Origin: Convolutriloba macropyga
Taxonomy: Eukaryota
Assembly (NCBI RefSeq): GCF_964194025.1
Contig: NC_134475.1
Coordinates: forward strand, 8,370,001 to 8,434,000
Direction: 5' to 3'
DNA: 64,000 bases
Shown here: piece after piece, positions 7,922 to 63,363 of the stretch
Layout: the number at the start of each line of letters is the position of its first letter
Numbering within the stretch: the stretch's first letter is position 1
Translations under genes and position numbers: made by a program
Notes under the pieces: model-generated
Databases searched by the model: none
What the model saw: only the letters and a program-made list of their open reading frames with translations
What the model was told of the DNA's origin: nothing

Positions 7922-8835
7922 CCCGGGTCGAGACCGAATGGTTAACTTGTAAGAACTTGCAAGTTTCTTGCAAAAGAAGGTTAACTTGTAAGATTTTGCA
8001 AGTTTCTTGCAAAAGACGGTTAACTTGTAAGAACTTGCAAGTCGAATGGTTAACTTGTAATAACTTGTAAGTCGAAGGGTTAACTTGTAAGAACTTGCAA
8101 GGCAAATGGCTAACTTGTAGGTTTCTTACAAGTTCGTTCCGGTCGAGCACAACACTTATTGGTTAATTATATTTAACATTCAGTCATTTACCGTAGAAAG
8201 CGCGTAGGAGTTAGTCGCTCTGTTTGGATAACATAGCACAATTCGACATAAGTAGATAAAACGGTTACCTTTGAATTTTTTCAATTCAAAAGAGTCCCTT
8301 TTGCAATTCCATTAAAAAACTGTAGATTTCAATTAGCTTCTTCGATTGCTTTTTTAAAAATGTTCCCAAAATATTGATTTTGATAGAGTTTTCAAACTCA
8401 TATGTCAGTATTTTCCCAAAATAATTCAGTGGCCCATCATTTTTACAACATTCTTTATAATTTAATTCACACTTTTCAAGATTCCATTTTTTCCAAACAT
8501 CCGTTTACATTCATGTCTTGCAACGTTTTATTTACGGTTTAGTGTGCGTGTATGTGTGTGTGTGTGTGCGCGCGTGTATGTGCGTGCGTGGTGTGTTTGT
8601 GTGTGTGGTGTGTGTGCGAATGGTTAACTTGTAAGTAACTTGTAAGTTGAATGGTTAACTTGTAAGAGCCTTGTAAGTCGAATGGTTAACTTGTAAGAAC
8701 TTGCAAGTTGAATGGTTAACTTGTAAGAACTTGCAAGTTTTTGGAAGAAAAACTTGCAAGGCGATGCATCGCCTTGTAAGTTTCTGCCAGAAACTTGCAA
8801 GTTCTTACAAGATAACCATTCGGCCTCGACCCGGG
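7922..8835. mobile_element. Non-autonomous DNA transposon (MITE) with CCCGGGTCGAG termini, ~45-bp TIR, TA target duplication
   Basis: Left ta|cccgggtcgagaccgaatggttaacttgtaagaacttgcaagtttc is the near-perfect reverse complement of right gaaacttgcaagttcttacaagataaccattcggcctcgacccggg|ta; subterminal tandem GGTTAACTTGTAAGAACTTGCAAG repeats; no coding capacity. Confidence 0.9.
8541..8616. repeat. Imperfect (GT)n microsatellite inside the MITE
   Basis: Directly visible. Confidence 0.9.
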
Positions 8836-31454: not shown

Positions 31455-34212
31455 CTAGGAGGCTTTCTCCATATCCTCCAACTAAATACAAGAATTTTAG
31501 TAAAAATCGAAAGAAGATCAAAATTCGCAAATGCAGTAATTAACTCAGATTATAATGTTCTATGTCTTTGCGAAACCTGGTTGAACGATAACATTCATGA
31601 CTCCGAACTCTTTCTTAACGATTACAATATTTATAGAAGTGATCGGGCCACGATTGGAGATAGCAATGAGCATGGAGGTACCCTCATTGCTGTGAAAAAT
31701 ACTCTGATATCGGAAAAAATAAATTCAACTCTACCCAACTCATGGGTAGCGTGTAAAATTACTCTGAATGACACTCAAGTGTTTCTATATGCGTTCTACA
31801 ATCCACCAATATCAAGCTCATATCAATACACGATAGAGGACTTCCAACTGCTCCTGAGAAACATTCCTAAAAACAAACCAATCGTCATCTGTGGAGACCT
31901 TAATTTTCCAGAAGCAAACTGGAAGACACTGCATAGTCCCAACGAGACTGAAGACAAAGTCATCGAAATGTTTGAAGAGAAATTGTTTCGGCAAATTATC
32001 GACTTCCCGACATGTGGAAACAACATCTTGGATACTGCCTTCTATCAAAATTGTCATCTATCCGCTGAAATAGACAAATCTTTTCCATCTATCTATAATC
32101 TAACTCACCATGAAGCTATTCGTCTATCCTTAGAAAACCCAGTTACTGAAACAAAACCATTAATACAGAACTTTAGAAGTTTTTGGGAATGCTGACTATG
32201 ACGCAATAAACGAGCATATTGTTGAAAAACCGTTCCAGTCATTTTGTTACACCAACATCAACAAATTGAGCGAAAAATTCACAAGGTATCTTGACGGAAA
32301 TTTTGATTTGTATGTCCCGAAAAGAACAAGGCATAGACAATCACTGCCACCTTGGATTTCCTGTGGTACTTCAATTTTGGTTAATAAGCTGAAGACACAG
32401 AAACGTTTATTGGAGAATAAGCCATCACCTTACAGAAAACAGTTGGTTCTAAAACTAGAAATCCAAGTCACTGATTCAGCTGAAGAAGACAGAGTTGTGT
32501 AACAAGAAATATTACTGGGATCGAGAAATACAGACAGAATTTTTAAACATCTGAAAAACCTAAACAAATCTGCCTGCCTGCCCAAAGTTTTGATGAATGA
32601 TACCAAGCAAAGTTCACTTCGATGCGAAAAAATAATTATGTTAAATCAATTTTTTCATTCCGTCTTCTCCCCAAAGACTAATTTCAGTTTGAAAGATTTC
32701 AAAGTACAGAAACCCTCTCTTACAAATTTTGACGTCTCGAAGAATACCATCAGAAATATAATGGATGATATTGATGCCACAAAATTCAGAGGACCGAACG
32801 GTATTCCTCCGGTTTTTTACGTAAAGACAAGCAAGAATCTCTGCAACATCATGCATTCTGTCCTTCGGAACATAAAAAGGCTGCGGAAAATACCAGATAG
32901 CTGGAAAGTTGCTGCCATAACGCCTATTTTCAAAAAAGGAGACCGAAGAAAAGTTGAATACTACCGGCCTGTCTCACTATTGAACATTGATAGCAAGATT
33001 CTGGAAAAATGTATACACATTGCCTTGTATAATCATTTTCAAAATTTCCTAACTAAGAGTCAACATGGTTTTGTAAGGAGAAGATCTGTGCAAGCAATTA
33101 TACTTCTGTTTTTTCAAAAGAATATATGAAGCTCCTGATCACGAGCCTCAATCAGAGATTATTGCTTTCTACACTGACTTCTCAAAAGCTTTTGACAAAG
33201 TACCACATTATGAGTTAATTCAAAAATTTATTGAAATTGGAGTTGGAGGATGTTTGCTCGAAATTTTAATCGACTGCTTGAGTGATCGACAACAATATGT
33301 GCGTGTGGACAATACCAGTTCAAAGATACTCGATATAACAAGCGGGGTACCACAGGGGTCACTCCTAGGCCCTATACTGTTCTGTATATTTATAAACAAT
33401 CTTCCAGATGTCCTGATGTTTTCTGAGCCCTTTTTCTTCACTGATGATCTTAATATTTTGTCTGTACAAAGAAGCTACTGGGAAGTCCAAGATGATCTAC
33501 ATGGGATTGAGAACTGGATAATCCAAAATAAAATGGAGCTGGCAATAGACAAGTGTGCGTATCTGAATTTCAGAGGTAGAGACCAACAGTACAAATTGAT
33601 GGGAAAAGATTTGGCGAAATCCACGACTGTCAAAGATCTTGGTATTCACGTGGCGGCTGATGTATCGTGGAAACAGCAAATAAAATTCTGTGCATGCTTA
33701 AGCGAAATGTTGCAACTAAAGTAAACACGTTTGTGAAATTGGGAGTATATAAGTCTTTAATTCTGGTGGTATTGCTGTCACGTGCTTGTCTGCAGGAAGA
33801 ACTGAAATTCAAATATTGGAAAAGTTTCAAAAAAAGGTAGTCAAATGGATAACGGGAAATAAAGATACAGAACACAAAAGCCAGCTTCGACTATTAAACA
33901 TATTGCCATTACCAAATGTTTATTCCAACTTAACGATCTGAAGTACATACGAAAGAAACAAGGAACAACGAAATTTTCAAAATGACGAAAACTCGATTAG
34001 AGAAAGCGCGCAGCGAATTCACCTTTAAAACCTGTCGAATTGCAAACCGCCTAGAAAATTTAATAAACTTAAGGGAACCATCTGGACTGAAAAACCGAAT
34101 ATTACGTACAATGTGGAACTTTTTCGAGAAGAAATTTTCTGAGCGAAATATTTGCACTTGGCAATTGTTCTGCGATTGTCAAAACTGTAGAAACTATTGG
34201 ACATTATTTTGA
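31455..34212 (+). pseudogene. LINE ORF2: AP endonuclease + reverse transcriptase (disrupted)
   Basis: APE: QLNTR, LCETWL, YRSDR, GGTLIAVK, GDLNFP, NILD; RT: GPNGIPP, WKVAAITPIFKKGD, YRPVSLL, QHGF, DFSKAFDKV, SGVPQGSLLGP, FTDD, KDLGI. Confidence 0.95.
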
Positions 34213-35236: not shown

Positions 35237-38200
35237 TCTTATCTTTTCCAAAACACCTAATAATATAACTTTCTCTCAGTAACTTCTAATTTTCTCATTT
35301 TATTTCTAATTTTTAGATGTACTCAATGTCATTGATCAGATTAGTTCCCAGGTTGAGGTTCTTTTTATGACTCACAACTAATTTGAACGCACATTGGGGC
35401 TGTTGTAAGTAGTCATTTATTCTAGTGCAGTAAAATTCCTATATGATGTACTTGTTTCTTAACTGTATTTTTTCCTGAAGGACATGAAAAAGAAGTCTTG
35501 CTAAGTTTACCTAATAACCAAAGTCGTTTCATATTTTATTCTCTTGCCCTCTTTCCCGTGTCGGGAAACTAATTGTTCATATGTGTTTTGACTTTTATAC
35601 ACTCAGTTTCAGTTAAATTCATTTCTTTTATTTTGCACCTCTTGTTCAGTTGGTAAATTTAACTTATCACTAGACAGTCGTATTTACTTCATAAGTTAAG
35701 TGAGCAAGTGACAGATAACCATTTCGCTAGGTGAATTCAAAAATGAAATTGTGCTAAGTGCACTCGCCGCACAAGTCATCAAAACAGAAAATCTGACAGA
35801 GATTTGAACAGCAAAACAAGTGAACAATATTGATTTTGTACGACATGGCGCAGTCAGCATTAAAAAAGCGGAGACCACTTGGCATCGAGGCCTTATGGGA
35901 AAAACCTAGCTCAAACCCTACTTTAAAGTGGGAAAATTGACAAAAAAAAGGCGAAATTGGCTATATTAGCCAAAGAGAACATTATTTTGGACATTTTGCT
36001 TGACCCCAAACCCGAGAATGTTTGACTCCATTTAGAACTGGTTTACGAGAGCACAAAAACTGTACATTCTGACCAATGGGAACGCCAACGACTCCCTAGA
36101 AATGTACAGTTGTATATGTACTGGGAACATCTCTGCCAAAGACAATTAGAAATAGGAATCATGTGTGGTGGCAAACCGTTGAACCAGGCAGAGCGCAAAG
36201 TCGTTTCTATGTTTTACTTTAGTCTAGGCACCGAAGGGAGAAGAATCGTATGCAGCAGAAACCTGCATCTGATGTGGATATATTGTCGACTGTGGAGATC
36301 TCGAAAATCATGGAGGACGCTTTCATTCAACCACGAGATAATACTTTTGACAGGTACAAGCTTCTTACAACAAAACAATCAAAAGAATTGGCAAATTAAA
36401 GGAATTATCTGAAAACTGCGAACTTGTAAACCAAGAAGATACATTTATAAGAGACCTTTCTATTGCCAACATGCAAGATACTGAAATTCAGATGGAGTTA
36501 TTTAGAGAAACTGTCAAACCCGCCCAAGCATTATGTTTGGCCAATAATTTGGAACTTGGTTAGCGGAACGAAATAAAAAACATCCAATTGTCAACCCGTT
36601 TTCCAAGTAATTACAATAACAACACAACGCCAATTCGGTAATTCAAATAAACGGCAAAATTTTCCAGCCATCAGCCCGACAAGCAAATCAACAGGGCTGA
36701 AACTGTGGCCTTACTGGGTTAGCAAATCAGAGAGATAAATGCATTGCTAAAGGCAAAACGTGTAACGACTGTGGTCTACAAAACCAGTTTGCTCGTGTGT
36801 GCCGCCAGCTAAAAACTATCACGTCAAAACCATCCTGACTCAAAATGAACTCTATTGATGAAACTACAATTGACTCTGTCAATACTATTCAAAAAACTAA
36901 CTACAACACAGAATGTGGACCGGATTATGATAGTTCAGATGACAATTTGTTGGCCAGCGTTACAAGCCATACTTTGCAATTTGAGCCAAAAAACACGACT
37001 CTACAAATTGGAAACACTAATGTGGGCCTACTCATCGTTTCCGGGAGTGTATATAGCATCCTAAATGAATCACTTGCCACTGAAGTCATTAAATATACTA
37101 CTCTCGCGCAATGGTTGACGAAGGGACCACCCAGAGGACTTAAAACTTTTGCGAATGAACCTATACCCATCATTGGCATTATGTAGACGCCGGTAGAGAG
37201 TAATTGTTGGCGAATTGAAGATGCTAAAGTTGTTGTAGTTAAAGACGGACTAAAACCAATCATTGGTAGAAATCTGTTAGAGGCTCTTGGCATATCAATT
37301 ACTCTAAGTTTGAAATCCTATGAAGGTAGTATTATCAACAAAATTAATACACAATTTCCTCTTAACGGGCGCATAGCAAATCATTTTCCACAACTCACCA
37401 CACGTAATGGTAGATCAAAAGTACATATTGTAAAGTCCAATTTCATAAACACTTCCAACGAAAACATCAAAATTGTAGAAGAGTACCTATTAGTCTGCAA
37501 GATATAGTTAACACTGAAATTAAGATGCCTATTGCCAACTAAATCTTCATCGTGATACTGCTAAACATTGTAATTTTAACATCGTTTGTGGTGACATGAC
37601 AAGCACGCATCCATTCCAAACAGGTTTTAATGAACTTACTGATATGCCCGCCGAGTTCCAAAAAGCCATGGACTATACGCTCATTGGTTTAAAAAACACT
37701 TTCTGTTTCTTGGATGATATTGTTATCATGGGTAAATGTTCTGAAGAAGATCATTTAAAACTTGTAACAAATTGCCTTAAAAAATTAGATGCAGATAATC
37801 TTTGCAATAATTTACGAAAATTTTACTCTTCCGAGCATGAAGTGTCATGGTTAGGTTAAAATACCATCAAAACTGGTTTCGCGCCAAATTGGATTTACAA
37901 CTTCTGCAATTTTTTCACTTCAAACACATACCACACTTAAAAAATAACTTTCTTTTCCTGCTCTGTCCAATATTTTTGGAAAATTGATTCCCAACTTGGC
38001 ACCACTTGGCACCCTTTAAGACCTCTTCTACGCAAATCGATTAAATACACCCGAAAAGATGAACACACTGTACTTTTTAATGCTATCAAGATGCAAATCG
38101 CAAATCATAAAGAAAACACTCATTGAAACCCGCAACTTGAAACCTGCATTAAATGTGATGCCTCCCGTTTTGGCCTTGGGGCAGCATTAGAAACATTAAC

Positions 38201-38606
38201 AGTTAATGGCTGGAAGCCAATATCATTTGCCTCTAGATTTTTAAATAGTAATGATGAACGTTACAGTAATAATGAGCTCGATTTATTTGGAGTAATTTGG
38301 TCAATGGAATAATTCAAAATATATCTTTTTGGACAAGAATTTTCATTAAAAATCATCAATCGAGCTCGACTTTCCATTTTAAAAGAACACAGATCTAACA
38401 AATGATACAATAGCCGTTTATCAATATAGTTAGATAGTCTACTACCTCATCAATTTGAAAATTGAAAGGGTGAATGAGCTAAGATGGGTCTCGCAGATTA
38501 CATATCTCGTAAACTTTATCAAACAGCAAACATTATTTTTAATTTTGAGAAGAATTTTAAGTTGCCACCTTATCTCGAATGCAAACAGATGCAAATTTAT
38601 TTCAAA
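35237..38606 (+). repeat. Near-identical duplicate of 38737-42107 (flank, 5' LTR 35401-35845, PBS, gag-pro-RT-RNase H); probably an uncollapsed allele
   Basis: Offset ~3500 bp, scattered substitutions only, same flank and TSD, same inactivating lesions, bounded on both sides by N gaps. Confidence 0.9.
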
Positions 38607-39346
38607 NNNNNNNNNNNNNNNNNNNNNNNNNNNNNNNNNNNNNNNNNNNNNNNNNNNNNNNNNNNNNNNNNNNNNNNNNNNNNNNNNNNNNNNNNNNNNN
38701 NNNNNNNNNNNNNNNNNNNNNNNNNNNNNNNNNNNNTTCTTATCTTTTCCAAAACACCTAATAATATAACTTTCTCTCAGTAACTTCTAATTTTCTCATT
38801 TTATTTCTAATTTTTAGATGTACTCAATGTCGTTGATCAGATTAGTTCCCAGGTTGAGGTTCTTTTTATGACTCACAACTAATTTGAACGCACATTGGGG
38901 CTGTTGTAAGTAGTCATTTATTCTAGTGCAGTAAAATTCCTATATGATGTACTTGTTTCTTAACTGTATTTTTTCCTGAAGGACATGAAAAAGAAGTCTT
39001 GCTAAGTTTACCTAATAACCAAAGTCGTTTCATATTTTATTCTCTTGCCCTCTTTCCCGTGTCGGGAAACTAATTGTTCATATGTGTTTTGACTTTTATA
39101 CACTCAGTTTCAGTTAAATTCATTTCTTTTATTTTGCACCTCTTGTTCAGTTGGTAAATTTAACTTATCACTAGACAGTCGTATTTACTTCATAAGTTAA
39201 GTGAGCAAGTGACAGATAACCATTTCGCTAGGTGAATTCAAAAATGAAATTGTGCTAAGTGCACTCGCCGCACAAGTTATCAAAACAGAAAATCTGACAG
39301 AGATTTGAATAGCAAAACAAGTGAACAATATTGATTTTGTACGACA

Positions 39347-39360
39347 TGGCGCAGTCAGCA
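39347..39360 (+). promoter_or_regulatory. Primer binding site, probably tRNA-Ser (duplicate at 35846-35859)
   Basis: tggcgcagtcagca directly after the LTR terminal CA; complementary to a ...GACTGCGCCA 3' end as in invertebrate tRNA-Ser(AGA). Confidence 0.7.
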
Positions 39361-42300
39361 TTAAAAAAGCGGAGACCACTTGTCATCGAGGCCTTATGGG
39401 AAAAACCTAGCTCAAACCCTACTTTAAAGTGGGAAAATTGACAAAAAAAGGCGAAATTGGCTATATTAGCCAAAGAGAACATTATTTTGGACATTTTGCT
39501 TGACCCCAAACCCGAGAATGTTTGACTCCATTTAGAACTGGTTTACGAGAGCACAAAAACTGTACCTTCTGACCAATGGGAACGCCAACGACTCCCTAGA
39601 AATGTACAGTTGTATATGTACTGGGAACATCTATGCCAAAGACAATTAGAAATAGGAATCATGTGTGGTGGCAAACCGTTGAACGAGGCAGAGCGCAAAA
39701 TCGTTTCTATGTTTTACTTTAGTCTAGGCACCGAAGGGAGAAGAATCGTATGCAGCAGAAACCTGCATCTGATGTGGATATATTGTCGACTGTGGAGATC
39801 TGGAAAATCATGGAGGACGCTTTCATTCAACCACGAGATATTACTTTTGACAGGTACAAGCTTCTTACAACAAAACAATCAAAGGAATTGGCAAATTAAA
39901 GGAATCATCTGAAAACTGCGAACTTGTAAACCAAGAAGATACATTAATAAGAGACCTTTCTATTGCCAACATGCAAGATACTGAAATTCAGATGGAGTTA
40001 TTTAGAGAAACTGTCAAACCCGCCCAAGCATTATGTTTGGCCAATAATTTGGAACTTGGTTAGCGGAACGAAAGAAAAAATATCAAATTGTCAACCCGTT
40101 TTCCAAGTAAATACAATAACAACACAACGCCAATTCGGTAATTCAAAAAAACGGCAAAATTTTCCAGCCATCAGCCCGACAAGCAAATCAACAGGGCTGA
40201 AACTGTGGCCTTACTGGGTAAGCAAATCAGAGAGATAAATGCATTGCTAAAGGCAAAACGTGTAACGACTGTGGTCTACAAAACCAGTTTGCTCGTGTGT
40301 GCCGCCAGCCAAAAACTATTACGCCAAAACCATCCTGACTCAATATGAAATCTATTGATGAAACTACAATTGACTCTGTCAATACTATTCAAAATACTCT
40401 CTACAACACAGAATGTGGACCGGATTATGATAGTTCAGATGACAATTTGGTGGCCAGCGTTATAAGTCATACTTTGCAATTTGAGCCACAAAACACGACT
40501 CTACAAATTGGAAACACTAATGTGGGCCTACTCATCGTTTCCGGGAGTGTATATAGCATCCTAAATGAATCACTTGCCACTGAAGTCATTAAATATACTA
40601 CTCTCGCGCAATGGTTGACGAAGGGACCACCCAGAGGATTTAAAACTTTTGCGAATGAACCTGTACCCATCATTGGCATTATGTAGACGCCGGTAGAGAG
40701 TAATTGTTGGCGAATTGAAGATGCTAATTTTGTTGTAGTTAAAGACGGACTAAAACCAATCATTGGTAGAAATCTGTTAGAGGCTCTTGGCAAATCAATT
40801 ACTCTAAGTTTGAACTCCTATGAAGGTAGTATGATCAACAAAATTAATACACAATTTCCTCTTAACGGGCGCATAGCAAATCATTTTCCACAACTCACCA
40901 CACGTAATGGTAGATCAAAAGTACATATTGTAAAGTCCAATTTCATAAACACTTCCAACCAAAACATCAAAATTGTAGAAGAGTACCTATTAATCTGCAA
41001 GATATAGTTAACACTGAAATTAAGATGCCTATTGCCAACTAAATCTTCATCGTGATACTGCTAAACATTGTAATTTTAACATCGTTTGTGGTGACATGAC
41101 AAGCACGCATCCATTCCAAACAGGTTTTTATGAACTTACTGATATGCCCGCCGAGTTCCAAAAAGCCATGGACTATACGCTCATTGGTTTAAAAAACACT
41201 TTCTGTTTCTTGGATGACATTGTTATCATGGGTAAATGTTCTGAAGAAGATCATTTAAAACTTGTAACAAATTGCCTTGAAAAATTAGATGCAGATAATC
41301 TTTGCAATAATTCACGAAAATTTTACACTTCCGAGCATGAAGTGTCATGGTTAGGTTAAAATACCATCAAAACTGGTTTCACGCCAAATTGTATTTAAAA
41401 CTTCTGCAATTTTTTTCACTTCAAACACATACCACACTTAAAAAATAATTTTCTTTTCCTGCTCTGTCCATTATTTTAGGAAAATTTATTCCCAACTTGG
41501 CACAACTTGGCACCCTTTAAGACCTCTTCTACGCAAATCAATTAAATAAACCCGATAAGATGAACGCACTGTACTTTTTAATGCTATCAAGATGCAAATC
41601 GCAAATCATAAAGAAAACACTCATTGAAACCCGCAACTTGAAACCTGCATTAAATGTGATGCCTCCCGTTTTGGCCTTGGGGCAGCATTAGAAACATTAA
41701 CAGTTAATGGCTGGAAGCCAATATCATTTGCCTCTAGATTTTTAAATAGTAATGATGAACGTTACAGTAATAATGAGCTCGATTTATTTGGAGTAATTTG
41801 GTCAATGGAATAATTCCAAAATTATCTTATTGGACAAGAATTTTCATTACAAATCATCAATCGACCTCGACTTTCCATTTTAAAAGAACACAGATCTAAC
41901 AAATGATGCAATAGCCGTTTATCAATATAGTTAGATAGTCTACTACCTCATCAATTCGAAAATTGAAAGGGTGAATGAGCTAAGATGGGTCTCGCAGATT
42001 ACATATCTCGTAAACTTTATCAAACAGCAAACATTATTTTTAATTTTGAGAAGAATTTTTAGTTGCCACCTTATCTCGAATGCAAACAGATGCAAACTTA
42101 TTTCAAAAAACCTATTTCTGCCTTCCATCTTAATAAGTTTTATTTAGCTAACAAACTTGATACTCAAATACACACTACTAAACAACGTAACAATAATGAT
42201 TATGTCTTAAAGATAGATTCTGCAACACAGGAAAATTTATCTCAAAATTTATTGCCCCTCGCCAAGCAAAATACTAGATCGAAATTGGCTTCAATAAAAA

Positions 42301-45192
42301 TTTTAATTTAAGTAGTGATCCTGCACCGCAAGTACACAGTACGTTTTACTCAAACTCAGTTCACAATCTAAAAAATTGCAAAAATGCAAAAATGTAATCT
42401 AAAATTAATCTCTCGTAACCACACTAATTATGATAGTACACATGCATCGCGAGTACGTTTTACTCCAAATCAATCAACACCCGCTCAGCGAAACTCTTCT
42501 TCAATTACACAATCCCAGAATACAAATAGCACATTTAACTCATTTGAATTTCACACTAATTTTATAACCAAATAATCCCTCACTCACTTTGCATAAAACA
42601 AATAGTATCCATTCTATACTACAAATTGATGCTCAAATACAGAAATTTAAGCCGCGAATTACCAATCAAGCGTCTCTTGCTTATCAAAATCCACTACAAT
42701 TCAATGAATTAAAACACTCTAATCTGTCAATCACAACAAAGTCTCACATTCCTTTCTTAATTAACACTAAAAATTCAAATTCTTCAAATATTTCACATGC
42801 TCAAATAAAAAACAAAACAATCGAATTTCGATTTTTGCATAATTTCAATCCCAAATTCAGTCGGTTAATAGTTCCATAAAATCAATCTACACTTTTTGTA
42901 AAATGAGTCAAGTATCTGCAATGAAAAGCAAATACCCATCACGAACAACAACCAGAACTTCACCTCGCGTGTCTTTCACATACAACACAGTTCAAAACAC
43001 GCCCAACCAATCATCTTCTATTTTTAACATTAGTAACCCGCGAATTGACAGTCCTCAGGTTCTGTCGTTTGACAAAGTGGGTGAGAAGCTCTTTAGCAAA
43101 AACCTAATAGCTGCTCACAAGAGTAAAGATGCAGTGCTCAAAGAGTTCCGCGACTGCATCATTCAATCAGAAAAGGAGAGACTCAAACAGCTAAATCAAC
43201 ACCTGCAAAGATATTGGTGTGATCTATATGCCAGTAGCTTCTGTGTATGTATGGACGAGAAGGTGGAGAATCCAAACGCTTTGAAAGAAGAGTTAAAAGA
43301 AGATCTCCACGCTAGTCACCGGGCAGCTGGGGAATGATATGTATGAACCAACACTGTTAGTGACCATACATGAACAGGGATATGTTTCTTCGTGCAATAG
43401 AGTGCAAGCCTTGCACCGCAACTGGAAAAAAACTAAAGTCAAATATACCCGCAAAGCAATATCAACCTCATAAACCATGTATTGTCACCCATCAAAAAAT
43501 GCAGATAGATTTCGCAAGCCCCATTAACAAGGAAAAGGATCAAGAATCGATCAATCTTTTTGCCTCATAGGTTATCAAGTAAAAACCTTTTGCATAAAAA
43601 ATATAAATCTAATTCCAGCTCCAGCAAATGGTCACCGGGTTATCAATTTAGTAGAAATGTTAACAATTTTCATAAAACAACGCTTAGCATGTATGAAAGA
43701 AGCTCATATAGAATTAAATTCGTTCACCATTAAAACAGCACTTGAAACAACACTATACAAGCTCCTCATATGGAAACATAAAACTACTGGGGTTTCGGCT
43801 TTCGAATCCCACTTTGGTTGCCAGGCTAACACTCTGCTTATTAACGTTAGTAAAAAATATTGGCAATATTGGCTAACACTCAATACTCTGATTTTAGTTT
43901 TGAAAGATTTTAAACCATTTCTTAGACAAAAAAATTCCAAACCATATGGACTGCTAACCTAGGTGTATTGGGGCTACTATCGCGGTGACGAGGAGGATGA
44001 ACGGAACACAGTTTTAGTGCGAGGCGAGAGGCACACCCGTGCGAACGGAATGCAGATGATAATGAGCCTCGTTTCGTTCGCTCGACCAAAATAAATAGAG
44101 TCATTCTTCTTAAAGAGCCAGCAGTACAACTCAATAATACCCGCAAACGCCATCCAAACTAGCGGTCCATGAAGAACCTCGAAGGCCTATATGAGGTATT
44201 GACCCCTGGTTCTTTTGTACAAAAGACTGACCAACATACATCGGTGATTCGCGAACCGGGGAAATCAGTCGTCACAGTTCGCAATAGCGATATTGCGAAG
44301 TTCAGTACAAGAGACGAGAGAAAAACAAAACTCACCAAATATATTAATAGGCGCGGACCATGTATCCTGGAAAAGTCAACCTAGGCTTAAATTCTGAGCC
44401 ATACAAAAGAGTTTACGGGAATCCAAAAGAGCGATCGTTAAATGAAGCGGCGCAAACGTGACACAGCTGGTGACATCTCGTCTAATCGCTCAAACATTGC
44501 TCGCGCAATGCGATTAAGGATGCCAAAAATCCCGACCAATTTTGCACCAACTGACACCATTTCAACTTTTGCACCGCAAATGACATCTACAACTGGTTCT
44601 ACTCATCCAGCACAACAGAGTTCACAGATATTAATTGCAGCACCACCTACAAGCCAAACTGCAGAATTGCAATTCTACTTCTGCACCTATAAAGGCCCCT
44701 CAACAGGTTTTGCCGAAAACGTCAAAGCGAACACGTAAACGTAAAAGTCCAAATTATTATGGCTTTGACAATGATGATTCGCCTGGGGAATCGACCAACT
44801 CGTGCCCACCAGATCTTATGCAATTCCAAAGAAAACGCAGACTTGGTGATATTGAGTCGGTACAACATTCAATTGTACAAACTATAGCAACCACCGCAGC
44901 TCAGGTAGAGCCATTTTATAGTCCATATCCCTCGCCGGTCATAGGCAAAGTCTCGCCAACTGATCGCCGTTTTTAACATGCAGATCAGAGTTCTACTGAT
45001 GAGTTATTTATCGACGAAGAAGATAGTCAAAAAAACTTGAACACTTTTAAAACTGGATACGTTATTACTTATGACTAGCTATCATAACCAGTAAATATAA
45101 GGTTTATATTTGTATAACCGGTGAATAAGTACTATTATATATTCCATATTGTTATTAAAAATTTTCAATTAGTGCAATTTTTAGTTTTTGTC

Positions 45193-55995: not shown

Positions 55996-56136
55996 CCCCG
56001 GTCGAGGTTTGGCGGTGAATTTTCGTAAGAAATGCGGTGAAATATTTATTATCACCGCATTCACCGCAATCACCGCATTTCTTACAAAGATTCACCGCAA
56101 TTCTCACAAAAATTTACCCAAAAACCTCGACCCAGG
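55996..56136. mobile_element. Minimal 141-bp MITE of the CCCGGGTCGAGG family, TC target duplication
   Basis: tc|ccccggtcgaggttt ... aaacctcgacccagg|tc; internal GCGGTGAA/TCACCGC inverted motifs. Confidence 0.8.
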
Positions 56137-60475: not shown

Positions 60476-60600
60476 TCAATTGCATATAACTCAATTGCAT
60501 AACTCAATTGCATAACTCAATTGCATAACTCAATTGCATAACTCAATTGCATAACTCAATTGCATAACTCAATTGCATAACTCAGTTGTATAACTCAACT
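60476..60600. repeat. 13-bp minisatellite (ATAACTCAATTGC)x~9
   Basis: Mostly perfect tandem units, degenerate at both edges. Confidence 0.95.
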
Positions 60601-60963
60601 GGAACCTTGATAAGCATATGGGATACAGAATGTTTGTCTTCAATTTTCTTAATTTTGTTTTGATGGGTTAGAATAGCTTCATATCTTCAACGGCACATTA
60701 GCGATCGTACTTACTAGCATTAAGAATCATGCTAACTTCATAAACTGAAAAATTTAATTGAAAAAGTCGCAAAAACCTTGGTCTCCGAGTTATACATGCA
60801 ATCAAAATTTGTTCTGCTTGCGAGATCTTTCTAGCTTTGTTCGTAAAATGCACTTTGAGGCAGATGATAATGGTCATAATGAGTCACAATATTGTGTACT
60901 GAATTTGAAAACTTATCGATAATTTTGTCGTCCTATGAAGTTTTACTTTTGTTTATTGCAATA

Positions 60964-61614
60964 CCCGGGTCGAGGTGTCACCGCTAAAAATCGCTAAAAG
61001 ATGTAAGATTTGCGGTGAATTTGAGTAAAAGTGTAAGATTTGCGTTCAATGCGATGAATGCGGTGAAAAAAAACTTTTAAGCGGTGAAAATTTTTTTTTC
61101 AGCGCTTAAGCGGTGAAAGAAAATTTTTCACCGCTACATGCAGGATGCGGTGAAAAAAATTCTTCACCGCTACCACCAGAATGCTGTGAAAAAAAATTTT
61201 TCACCGCTACCAGCAGAATGCGGTGAAAAAAAATTTTTCACCGCTAAAATCGCAAATCTTACAAAAATTTACCGCTCTAATTTCAACGCTTATCCTATAT
61301 TCACAGGAAATATCATTGAAGTAAGTGACAGATGGCGCAGTGGATTACGAAGTTGGTCACACGCATGAGGTAGAGGTTCGAACCCTTGTACGGCAGTTTC
61401 TTTTTTGTAAGAATTCCGGTGAATGCGGTGAAAAAAATTTTTCACCGCAAAATTCAACGCTATCAGCGCAAAAATTCTTCTTTTTTTACAAAAATTCACC
61501 GCTTTCAGCGCATTCAACGCTAAAAGATGCGGGCGCTTTACGGTGAAAAAAGTTTTTTTTCACCGCTATTCACCGCTAATCTTACATTATTTTTTGTCAA
61601 AACCTCGACCCGGG
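60964..61614. mobile_element. MITE of the CCCGGGTCGAGG family, TA target duplication, with tRNA-like core
   Basis: ta|cccgggtcgaggt ... acctcgacccggg|ta (13-bp perfect TIR); many GCGGTGAAAA...TTTTCACCGC mini-palindromes. Confidence 0.92.
61326..61396 (+). ncRNA. tRNA-derived (Val-CAC-like) sequence with intact Pol III A/B boxes and T-run terminator; not a functional tRNA
   Basis: A box TGGCGCAGTGG 61333-61343, B box GGTTCGAACCC 61375-61385, TCACACGC anticodon-loop remnant, TTTTTT 61391-61396; acceptor and anticodon stems do not pair well. Confidence 0.6.
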
Positions 61615-61949
61615 TACCGCAATTTATTGCAATTATTACCATAGGCGGATTTGGCTTTTGATATCAGTTATAAAATAATTTTGTCATAAACTGTAAATCA
61701 CCTGGGGTGTTAGAAAAATTAGCATCTGTTTAGTCGATCAGGACGAACTAAAAAATCTAGCCTACAGCTTAGTTTTGATTGGTTGACAAATCTGATTGGT
61801 CAAATTTTTGATCATTTGTCCTGTCGTTTCGTACGGCCGGCTTGTAGGCTGAAAATTTCATTTTGTTTCATGGTTGTTTGTTTAAATTTAAATTCGCCTA
61901 AACGCCCTGTCGGCCAAATTCAACGACCTCATCAGGTAGTTTTCATTAC

Positions 61950-62102
61950 CATTGAGTGGTTGATATTTGACGAGTGGCTTGACGAAGAATAACGGCTGAG
62001 ACGAGATGGTCATCGTTTTCAGAGCTTCACCCTCTCTCGTGAGGTCAGAGAGGGCTCTCCTTGCTCTCTGCCTCTGATTGTTAGTTTGACATTCGTTATC
62101 AC
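61950..62102 (-). CDS. ZP-domain protein exon (last Cys, furin site, external hydrophobic patch)
   Basis: catttttag| ... |gtaatg, phase 1-1; (S)DNECQTNNQRQRARRALSDLTREGEALKTMTISSQPLFFVKPLVKYQPLN; RARR fits R-X-R-R. Confidence 0.88.
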
Positions 62103-62932
62103 CTAAAAATGTCACAAACCAGAGTTTCAATTGTCAAAATAGGTGTGAACATGACATGATTGAGAAAGGTGATAAAGTCAGGAAAGGTACATAAAAATTT
62201 AGAGATGGAGCGTTCAAAGATAACGGAAACTCATTATCTCTCAAGTTAAGCGGATTTCTCACTTTCTTACAAAATAGTGCAAGTTTATCATTTTAAGCAA
62301 GACATTATTGTAAGATAGCCAATTTTCGACCATATAAATTCCTATCTTCCCGACGTGAAGTGGTCGAAGTATGATTAGACAACTATTGTCTGATGGGGGG
62401 GGGGGGGGGGGTACCGTCCCAGACGTAAATCACACGGTCTGGGCAATACTCTTTGTCGCGTTATTTCGAATCATAAGAGCGGTATGTTGAATCATATAGC
62501 ACTGCACAATCGAATCTTAGTCCCATTACGTCTGAAGAAATTGCGCAAAATCGAATCATAGTCACAAAAAATCCGACAGATTCCAGCCAGTTCTAATCAT
62601 GACAGCACTTTTTCCTCTTTAAATGTTCCGCAAAGGTCGAATCATAGTCTCACCACTTTTTTTGCACATCGTTTCCTAATTTCGAAATGGCTAGATGAGC
62701 CATTTTTCGAATTGGCTTGAAATGGTTTGAAGAGATCCCGTAGAGCCAGCCGGCTTTCGAGGAGAATTATATTTGAGATTTTATTAAAAGGATGCAGTTA
62801 CTAAATGAAGGCAGCCTCTTGTGAACACATTATGCTCTTAGTTTATCAGATTTGAGTAATTTTAAGTTTTTTTAAATGTCGGTTTGCAAAGCAAGAACAT
62901 GTCCGAACGTATGTAAATTGACGGATTCTAAC

Positions 62933-63117
62933 TTGGAGCGATGCAGGTAGATTCGTTTACTGAAGGACAGCTCCTGACCACACAGTGAATGTAAACAATG
63001 GCAGTAGTTTCTCCCTGCCATGAAAATGACATGAAGCTCATCAGGTCACGTGTGCTGCCTTCTTGTGCTCTGAGGGTGTGGTCTCGTTCAAACACGTCAT
63101 CAGATGCCAATGGACAC
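62933..63117 (-). CDS. ZP-domain protein exon (ZP-C subdomain)
   Basis: tttactcag| ... |gttaga; CPLASDDVF...MSFMSFSWQGETTAIVYIHCVVRSCPSVNESTCIAP matches the ZP-C pattern CP...F..F.F...VY.HC.V..C...C..P; splices in frame to the next exon. Upstream exons lie outside the window or were not found. Confidence 0.88.
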
Positions 63118-63139
63118 CTGAGTAAATTGCATTTAGTTC

Positions 63140-63363
63140 CCCGGTCAAGGAAAAATTAGAAAAATATGTAAGATTAAGTGGCGAGTCAAAAATTGTTTTT
63201 TCACCGCAAATTTTGTACATAACTTTGCGGTGAAATGTGGTAAATGCGGTGAAATTATATAAGTTCACCGCTAGAGTAAGCGGTGATCTTACAAAAATTC
63301 ACCACAATTCACCGCTAAAATATGTAATTTCACCGCTTAATGGCGGTGACACCTCGACCCGGG
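63140..63363. mobile_element. MITE of the CCCGGGTCGAGG family, probable TC target duplication
   Basis: tc|cccggtcaagg ... gcggtgacacctcgacccggg|tc; right 21 bp are the exact reverse complement of the left end of the 60964 element. Confidence 0.85.

Follow-up and report, generated by a model that had tools for sequence, protein, structure and literature searches.

A CACTA/TRC-type MITE variant in Convolutriloba macropyga whose predicted Pol III promoter boxes show a sequence signature of selection at the element level

It is not evident what an element that transposes without RNA would gain from a Pol III promoter, and the question raised by this locus is what a predicted tRNA-type promoter does inside a 651-bp MITE at positions 60964-61614 of the window (the whole 64,000-nt stretch analysed here, C8:8370001-8434000 of the 1.18-Gb C. 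macropyga genome). The initial annotation had placed the element in an intron of a ZP gene. The ZP-C exon was found on the minus strand at 62931-63140 (PF00100, E 5e-6), and the intronic position is plausible, judging from a plausible-looking donor site near 61950, with the next exon not found. A 13-bp minisatellite (9 copies, 60476-60598) lies 370 bp to the left of the element. At 31455-33724 and 36026-44976 the window also holds decayed LINE-like endonuclease and reverse-transcriptase frames, together with a tandemly duplicated, decayed LTR-retrotransposon-like region, all named by eye. The features of the element, in window coordinates, are as follows.

60962..60963, no strand: left copy of the TSD, TA, 2 bp (sequence)
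60964..60975, plus strand: left TIR, CCC-type (TIR match search)
60976..61290, no strand: left subterminal array of GCGGTG/CACCGC palindromic motifs, partly in 37-bp units (sequence)
61291..61325, plus strand: AT-rich stretch preceding the cassette; TATA-like word near 61296-61301 (putative function)
61326..61398, plus strand: decayed tRNA-derived sequence without a cloverleaf (ARAGORN, folding, tRNA comparison)
61333..61343, plus strand: predicted Pol III A box, TGGCGCAGTGG (sequence)
61357..61364: tRNA loop remnant (sequence)
61375..61385, plus strand: predicted Pol III B box, GGTTCGAACCC, 31 nt after the A box (sequence)
61401..61406, plus strand: T6 run, predicted Pol III terminator, 15 nt beyond the B box (sequence)
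61407..61602, no strand: right subterminal motif array (sequence)
61603..61614, minus strand: right TIR (TIR match search)
61615..61616, no strand: right copy of the TSD, TA (sequence)

The 12-bp TIRs (sequence CCCGGGTCGAGG, at 60964-60975 and 61603-61614) begin with CCC, are bordered by a TA duplication and have 7 matches within the window against 0.04 expected. Between them, 11 GCGGTG/CACCGC motifs lie to the left and 5 to the right of the core; by analogy with CACTA biology, they are likely to be transposase-binding sites. These palindrome arrays on both sides of the core, as well as a consensus A box followed 31 nt later by a B box, had been described from the outset and were recovered as such. 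The T6 run, however, lies 15 nt past the B box rather than 5 nt, and while a SINE body and poly(A) tail are indeed absent, the TSD that had been reported missing is present as the 2-bp TA. An A box, a B box at tRNA spacing and a downstream T-run, which together define a type-2 Pol III unit, are all there. The core lacks the cloverleaf of a functional tRNA gene: ARAGORN called no tRNA in the core of 60964-61614, Rfam gave no tRNA match (its E-value matches were palindrome artefacts far below gathering scores), and folding was no better than that of shuffles (z +1.2 and +1.6), all of which agrees with the earlier view that the cloverleaf stems are broken.

We classify 60964-61614 as a non-autonomous animal CACTA/EnSpm (TRC-type) element, because animal CACTA (TRC) elements are characterized by CCC ends and a 2-bp TSD in the accessible text of PMC1636069 and PMC4298943. 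The TIR beginning with CCC (a TRC feature in the same portion of PMC1636069), a 2-bp TSD of variable sequence and repeated subterminal motifs are all seen here. A 2-bp TSD occurs in 111/126 harvested elements (the figures for 1, 3 and 4 bp being 33, 3 and 1, respectively) and in 28/28 elements of family E, one of the sister families described below. Tc1/mariner, with its TA TSD, was ruled out, as the TSD sequence varies. Of eight flank-adjacent paralogous matches, five have an overlap of precisely 2 bp and mark empty sites, whereas three were tandem or microsatellite artefacts. An empty allele of 60964-61614 itself was also looked for, and no contig from four runs reached across the element. 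TIRs, 2-bp TSDs and empty sites together show that the element transposes as DNA.

A genome-wide search with the core of this element's family (family A) returned 1861 candidates, the top 40 of which show 97-100% core identity. Both TIRs enclose the core in 27 of the 30 loci taken from that search; 26 of these 27 are 590-710 bp long and the remaining one, which is nested, measures 1228 bp. The B-box region alone has 331 genome matches at ≤3 mismatches, which disposes of the possibility that the core is unique to one copy. Family A spans several hundred copies, and is short, non-coding, homogeneous and of high copy number, as befits a MITE; it departs from the definition in the available part of PMC3879986, by which MITEs are without a Pol III promoter, since its A and B boxes are complete. 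Hundreds of B boxes can in this way spread without retroposition.

An independent SINE was ruled out within the exact-pattern searches, where the cassette sits in transposon shells. When 40 divergent matches were fetched, all 36 A-type stretches had the MITE shell on both sides, and no free SINE head was found among 25/25 divergent pattern matches, apart from a lone tRNA-like match (L162). A start at the tRNA head, a body, a tail and a 6-18-bp TSD, which characterize tRNA-derived SINEs, are lacking. In a census of 179 distinct cassette matches, drawn from loci fetched mostly for these families, 128 had both TIRs, 25 one TIR and 1 the shell only, while 20 lay in HINE repeats and 5 were unassigned (3 HINE-like, 2 chance-like). 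In 400 kb of stretches chosen blind, a scan for the A+B cassette gave 1 match, which lay within a TIR element; 5 shuffles gave 0. With TIR-bounded copies, 2-bp TSDs and no free SINE found, the proposal of the initial annotation that a MITE/tRNA chimera is dispersed by DNA transposition holds up. Metagenome contigs, searched for the element in other organisms, gave 0 matches.

The cassette occupies the same place, in the same orientation, in five MITE families (A, A2, B, D and E), and in every cassette-bearing sister family it is directed toward the right end, 190-265 nt away. Box patterns led to A2 and B, which have the TIR of A (B with GCGCTG repeats), and to C, a repeat of another kind; as A2, B and C were first found in this way, box agreement at the family level is partly selected. 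When family B was resampled by its shell alone, the core was retained in 25/29 loci. D, D2, A3 and E are cassette elements met via their TIRs alone, in blind stretches or beside other loci; D and E were then sampled by shell sequence and their boxes were thus not selected for, with the cassette found in 18/32 loci of D, and 30 loci sampled for E. TIRs also led to elements without the cassette: a sister family encountered 4 times by chance and represented in the window at 7922-8835, single loci (L010, L104, L125) and short deletion derivatives. The window itself holds three cassette-less elements.

7922..8835, no strand: 914-bp sister-family element with the same TIR, a TA TSD and no cassette (sequence)
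55996..56136, minus strand: 141-bp cassette-less derivative with family A2 ends (sequence)
63139..63363, minus strand: 225-bp cassette-less derivative of family D (sequence)

The first of these differs in its internal repeat and contains a TIR-like word in its interior as well as a GT microsatellite; related ends occur at L028, L280 and L315.

In comparisons between families, conservation is much higher in the boxes than in the sequence around them. The A and B consensuses agree at 18/18 box positions and at 57/107 (0.53) of the rest, against 0.51 in shuffles (p 5e-5); in further comparisons, which are mutually non-independent, the boxes agree at 17/18 positions for A and D (rest 0.69), 15/18 for A and E (0.54), 17/18 for B and D (0.51) and 15/18 for B and E (0.46). 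The A box is identical to that of family A at 10-11 of 11 positions in all compared family consensuses, and the changes seen in C and E fall on the purine-degenerate positions of the A-box consensus. A, A2, B, C and E conform to the B-box consensus and have a T-run 12-18 nt past the B box; D does not conform: in most of its copies an A of the B-box core is changed to G, and the terminator is absent from its usual position. A TATA-like word is found at a similar offset in B, C and E. Lesser damage occurs elsewhere, as 6/30 copies of E share one A-box change and the B box is mismatched at 1-2 positions in single old copies of A3 and D2. The predicted A box, B box and usually the T-run are kept in place across families whose sequence is otherwise saturated, a constraint on lineages that is read from family consensuses.

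Could the cassette be a tRNA pseudogene or SINE head that was captured once, has no function and appears conserved through the route by which the families were found? TIR elements capture host DNA, copies decay neutrally, families and derivatives lacking the cassette have spread, and the B box of family D is damaged, all as such a relic would predict. Against this, D and E were not found by their boxes and still have an A box matching at 10-11/11, with the rest at or near the shuffle level relative to B, and the best cassette scores in the 4 incidental elements (26.7-34.6 bits) exceed the maximum of 280 shuffles (21.3 bits). We consider a functionless relic unlikely.

Family C, a ~410-bp repeat with 2660 candidates (L246-L275, e.g. 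C5:44208919-44209199), also carries a TATA-like word, an A box, a B box and a T-run resembling those of the MITEs. A 27-locus alignment reveals subTIRs, an inner inverted repeat, a 3' stem-loop and T-rich ends, an anatomy by which, compared with the accessible part of PMC4067079, we assign family C to the HINE/Helentron-type repeats. Outside the boxes, C is 0.60-0.62 identical to A, A2 and B, versus 0.49-0.50 in shuffles, and the cassettes may possibly share an origin. The box positions of C vary less than their neighbours (16/423 vs 257/3038, p 5e-4, corrected for the query).

Within families, the picture is different. Box changes are as frequent as background changes in copies of B (62/447 vs 489/3409, p 0.83), D (9/324 vs 97/2535, p 0.43) and the top family-A matches (6/660 vs 63/4079, p 0.29), while in E the boxes vary less than background (10/533 vs 168/4590, p 0.03); the box-selected samples of A and A2 are biased and were left out of these counts. 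Since boxes mostly decay at the background rate in inserted copies, selection on them seems to act along replicating lineages and not for the host. This counts against a further proposal of the initial annotation, a host role as dispersed insulators or antisense RNA, given the background-level decay in B and D. It is true that the copy studied here lies antisense within or beside a ZP-domain gene and that copies of E and C show a weak box excess, but the excess can stem from substitutions common to subfamilies and is absent from B, D and the top A matches. That the host has selected these copies as insulators, or to regulate genes like the ZP gene in antisense, appears to us most improbable.

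The predicted short Pol III RNA could instead be the selected product, for instance as a decoy or guide through which the family is less strongly silenced. This would account for the joint retention of TATA-like word, A box, B box and T-run in 5/6 families, and is opposed by the saturation between families of the transcript sequence between and after the boxes, the lack of a stable fold and the lost terminator position of family D. We regard a selected RNA as quite improbable.

Three complete long elements, to which open-ended matches of family D led, provide a candidate autonomous partner. Each is bounded on either side by the TIR of our element and has TA/TA flanks.

C16:25372297-25402049: autonomous-type element, 29.8 kb
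C11:44456955-44490409: autonomous-type element, 33.5 kb
C4:69247128-69283863: autonomous-type element, 36.7 kb

A fourth element (C745) extends past the 40 kb fetched, and no such long element was found within 20 kb of four further open-ended family-D loci. Inside the complete elements lie tandem arrays with repeat units of 166 and 180 bp, in up to 95 copies, and the GCGGTG/CACCGC motif fills both element ends. Their 1071-aa ORF, unbroken in the C16 copy, has an N-terminal SET domain; it scores 15.7 bits for Transposase_21 (below the 28.6 cut-off), matches DUF1258 at E 5e-4, and aligns at 27-34% (E 1e-34 to 1e-84) with 10/10 above-cut-off genomic Transposase_21 ORFs. We infer that transposase is supplied in trans by these 30-37 kb SET-fused elements or a relative. 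Further loci with a SET-bearing giant EnSpm/TRC ORF (~1000 aa) are L206 and L207, the C16 copy corresponding to L384, L385, L394 and L395. SET-bearing Harbingers are cited in the accessible part of PMC12730594, and within the full-text literature, as far as its text was available, no paper was evidently about EnSpm elements with a SET domain. Another route to a partner, via PF02992, gave 73 matches, and none of the 20 loci examined had this TIR at the element ends. Cassette MITEs adjoin two of the three complete copies (beyond C16 25372297 and beyond C4 69283863), a hint of local hopping or end targeting.

The closest MITE to the long elements is family D and not A: D consists of the two autonomous ends (90% and 96%), between which a 136-156-nt cassette occupies the apex of a terminal palindrome. 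What family A has in common with the long form is limited to the TIR, the motifs and ~95 + 82 nt at 76-78%, including the first 95 nt of 60964-61614, which are 78% identical to the autonomous 5' end; the AT-rich flank at 61291-61325 is not present there, and an A box was not found in the three autonomous copies at ≤1 mismatch. It may be that the cassette was ancestral and selected in the autonomous 3' end, that the MITEs inherited it by internal deletion and that the sampled autonomous lineage, the one covered by this comparison, lost it through motif-mediated recombination at the terminal palindrome. The same position and orientation in all families would follow, a single origin is parsimonious, and at the palindrome apex a gain in D reads the same as a loss in the lineage. 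The cassette is, however, missing from 3/3 complete TIR-matched copies and from 20 other Transposase_21 loci (8 of them extended to ~30 kb), and L020, tried as a cassette-bearing autonomous element, proved to be a truncated MITE inside an old tandem array. We hold such an ancestral end to be somewhat unlikely.

The explanation we favour, with confidence in the middle of the scale, is a TRC-type MITE whose tRNA-derived Pol III cassette would act in cis to help donor copies transpose. TFIIIC would bind the boxes and TFIIIB the TATA-like word, the right end would stay open or unsilenced, and new bursts would more often start from box-intact copies. Only replicating lineages would be under selection, with inserted copies decaying neutrally, and the predicted ~80-nt RNA would be a by-product, because neither its sequence nor its fold is kept. 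A strict need for the cassette is contradicted, because cassette-less families amplify and the B box of the main subfamily of D is damaged; these natural box-damaged and cassette-less variants make the idea of a TFIIIC boost directly testable. Flanked by subterminal motifs, the cassette could be swapped between end pairs by recombination. More tentatively, and with some doubt, we suggest that a portable Pol III core has evolved in the non-autonomous DNA elements of this animal and not in their partners, exploiting TFIIIC while the ends are renewed, with a comparable module present in a rolling-circle element. If true, the core would be kept by element-level selection and the ends renewed to fit the active transposase, a DNA-level counterpart of SINEs keeping their core and swapping tails, with host TFIIIC put to use as a cis-enhancer for cut-and-paste movement. 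This bears on the wider question of how short non-autonomous elements come to outcompete autonomous ones. Between the diverged families nothing but the promoter boxes is preserved, and a matching transposase-like gene has been found; on these sequence patterns, the element is a new TRC-type MITE variant with a signature of element-level selection on its predicted Pol III boxes.

CACTA elements with a 5S-like sequence occur in Triticeae, and elements such as ours may have been annotated before; TIR elements keeping tRNA-type boxes were not found in the full-text literature, Repbase Reports and most subscription papers lying outside that scope. The available descriptions of the TRC elements SmTRC1 (PMC1636069) and Spongebob/EnSpm-4N1_HM (PMC4298943) share with our element CCC termini, a 2-bp TSD, internal tandem repeats and a long form with an ORF that here is putatively Transposase_21-related. 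Those descriptions have no tRNA-derived cassette, and the long forms here are set apart by their 30-37 kb length, the 180-bp array and the SET domain in the same ORF. MITEs in the consulted portion of PMC3879986 are likewise short, non-coding, TIR-bounded and of high copy number with a TSD, but they have incomplete boxes only, in pearl and DTC84, whereas here both boxes and the terminator are complete and conserved between families. The Cassandra and Ajax TRIMs, with 5S promoters, are similarly non-autonomous and have retained a captured Pol III promoter, it seems to further their own spread; being retroelements, they depend on RNA, unlike the present element with its tRNA-type promoter and movement as DNA, and Table 2 of PMC10946416, as far as that source is accessible, lists Pol III promoter capture for retroelements and no DNA transposon. 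Like tRNA-derived SINEs, as presented in the accessible text of PMC11481361, the element has tRNA-derived A and B boxes; unlike them it lacks the body, tail and 6-18-bp TSD, carries an upstream flank and terminator, and always lies inside TIRs or a Helentron-type shell. Family C resembles the HINE/DINE-1 non-autonomous Helentrons in its subTIRs, inner inverted repeat and 3' stem-loop but carries an A/B-box cassette, and the available text of PMC4067079 nowhere mentions tRNA or Pol III.

As to where the core came from, 61326-61398 is ~65% identical to the genome's own tRNA-Val(CAC), in a comparison biased by Val genes having been fetched with a core-derived pattern. Among 23 isotype labels compared, Val is the best match for families A and A2, while B, C, D and E best match other tRNA types and the sister loops differ; a search with an Arg(ACG) pattern gave no match. 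CAC was counted by eye in 18/67 family-A rows among the first 100 of 193 matches listed, and G is read at 61358 in 70-79% of read depth (four runs). The CAC loop is a minority, young-subfamily allele, and most copies read GAC. The loop remnant at 61357-61364 was correctly recognized at first, but the Val(CAC) label attached to it is weak because sister families show other loops and other best-matching tRNAs. Other tRNA-like A/B-box sequences, of further types and without a family assignment, occur at L317 (minus strand, near position 927), in the right flank of L252 and at L162. Genes for tRNA-Val(CAC) form a tandem array at C4:80412241-80465792 (L075-L090) with ~570-bp spacing and some mutated anticodons, and similar arrays for Thr, Lys, Arg and Cys are located on C13, C7, C1 and C15.
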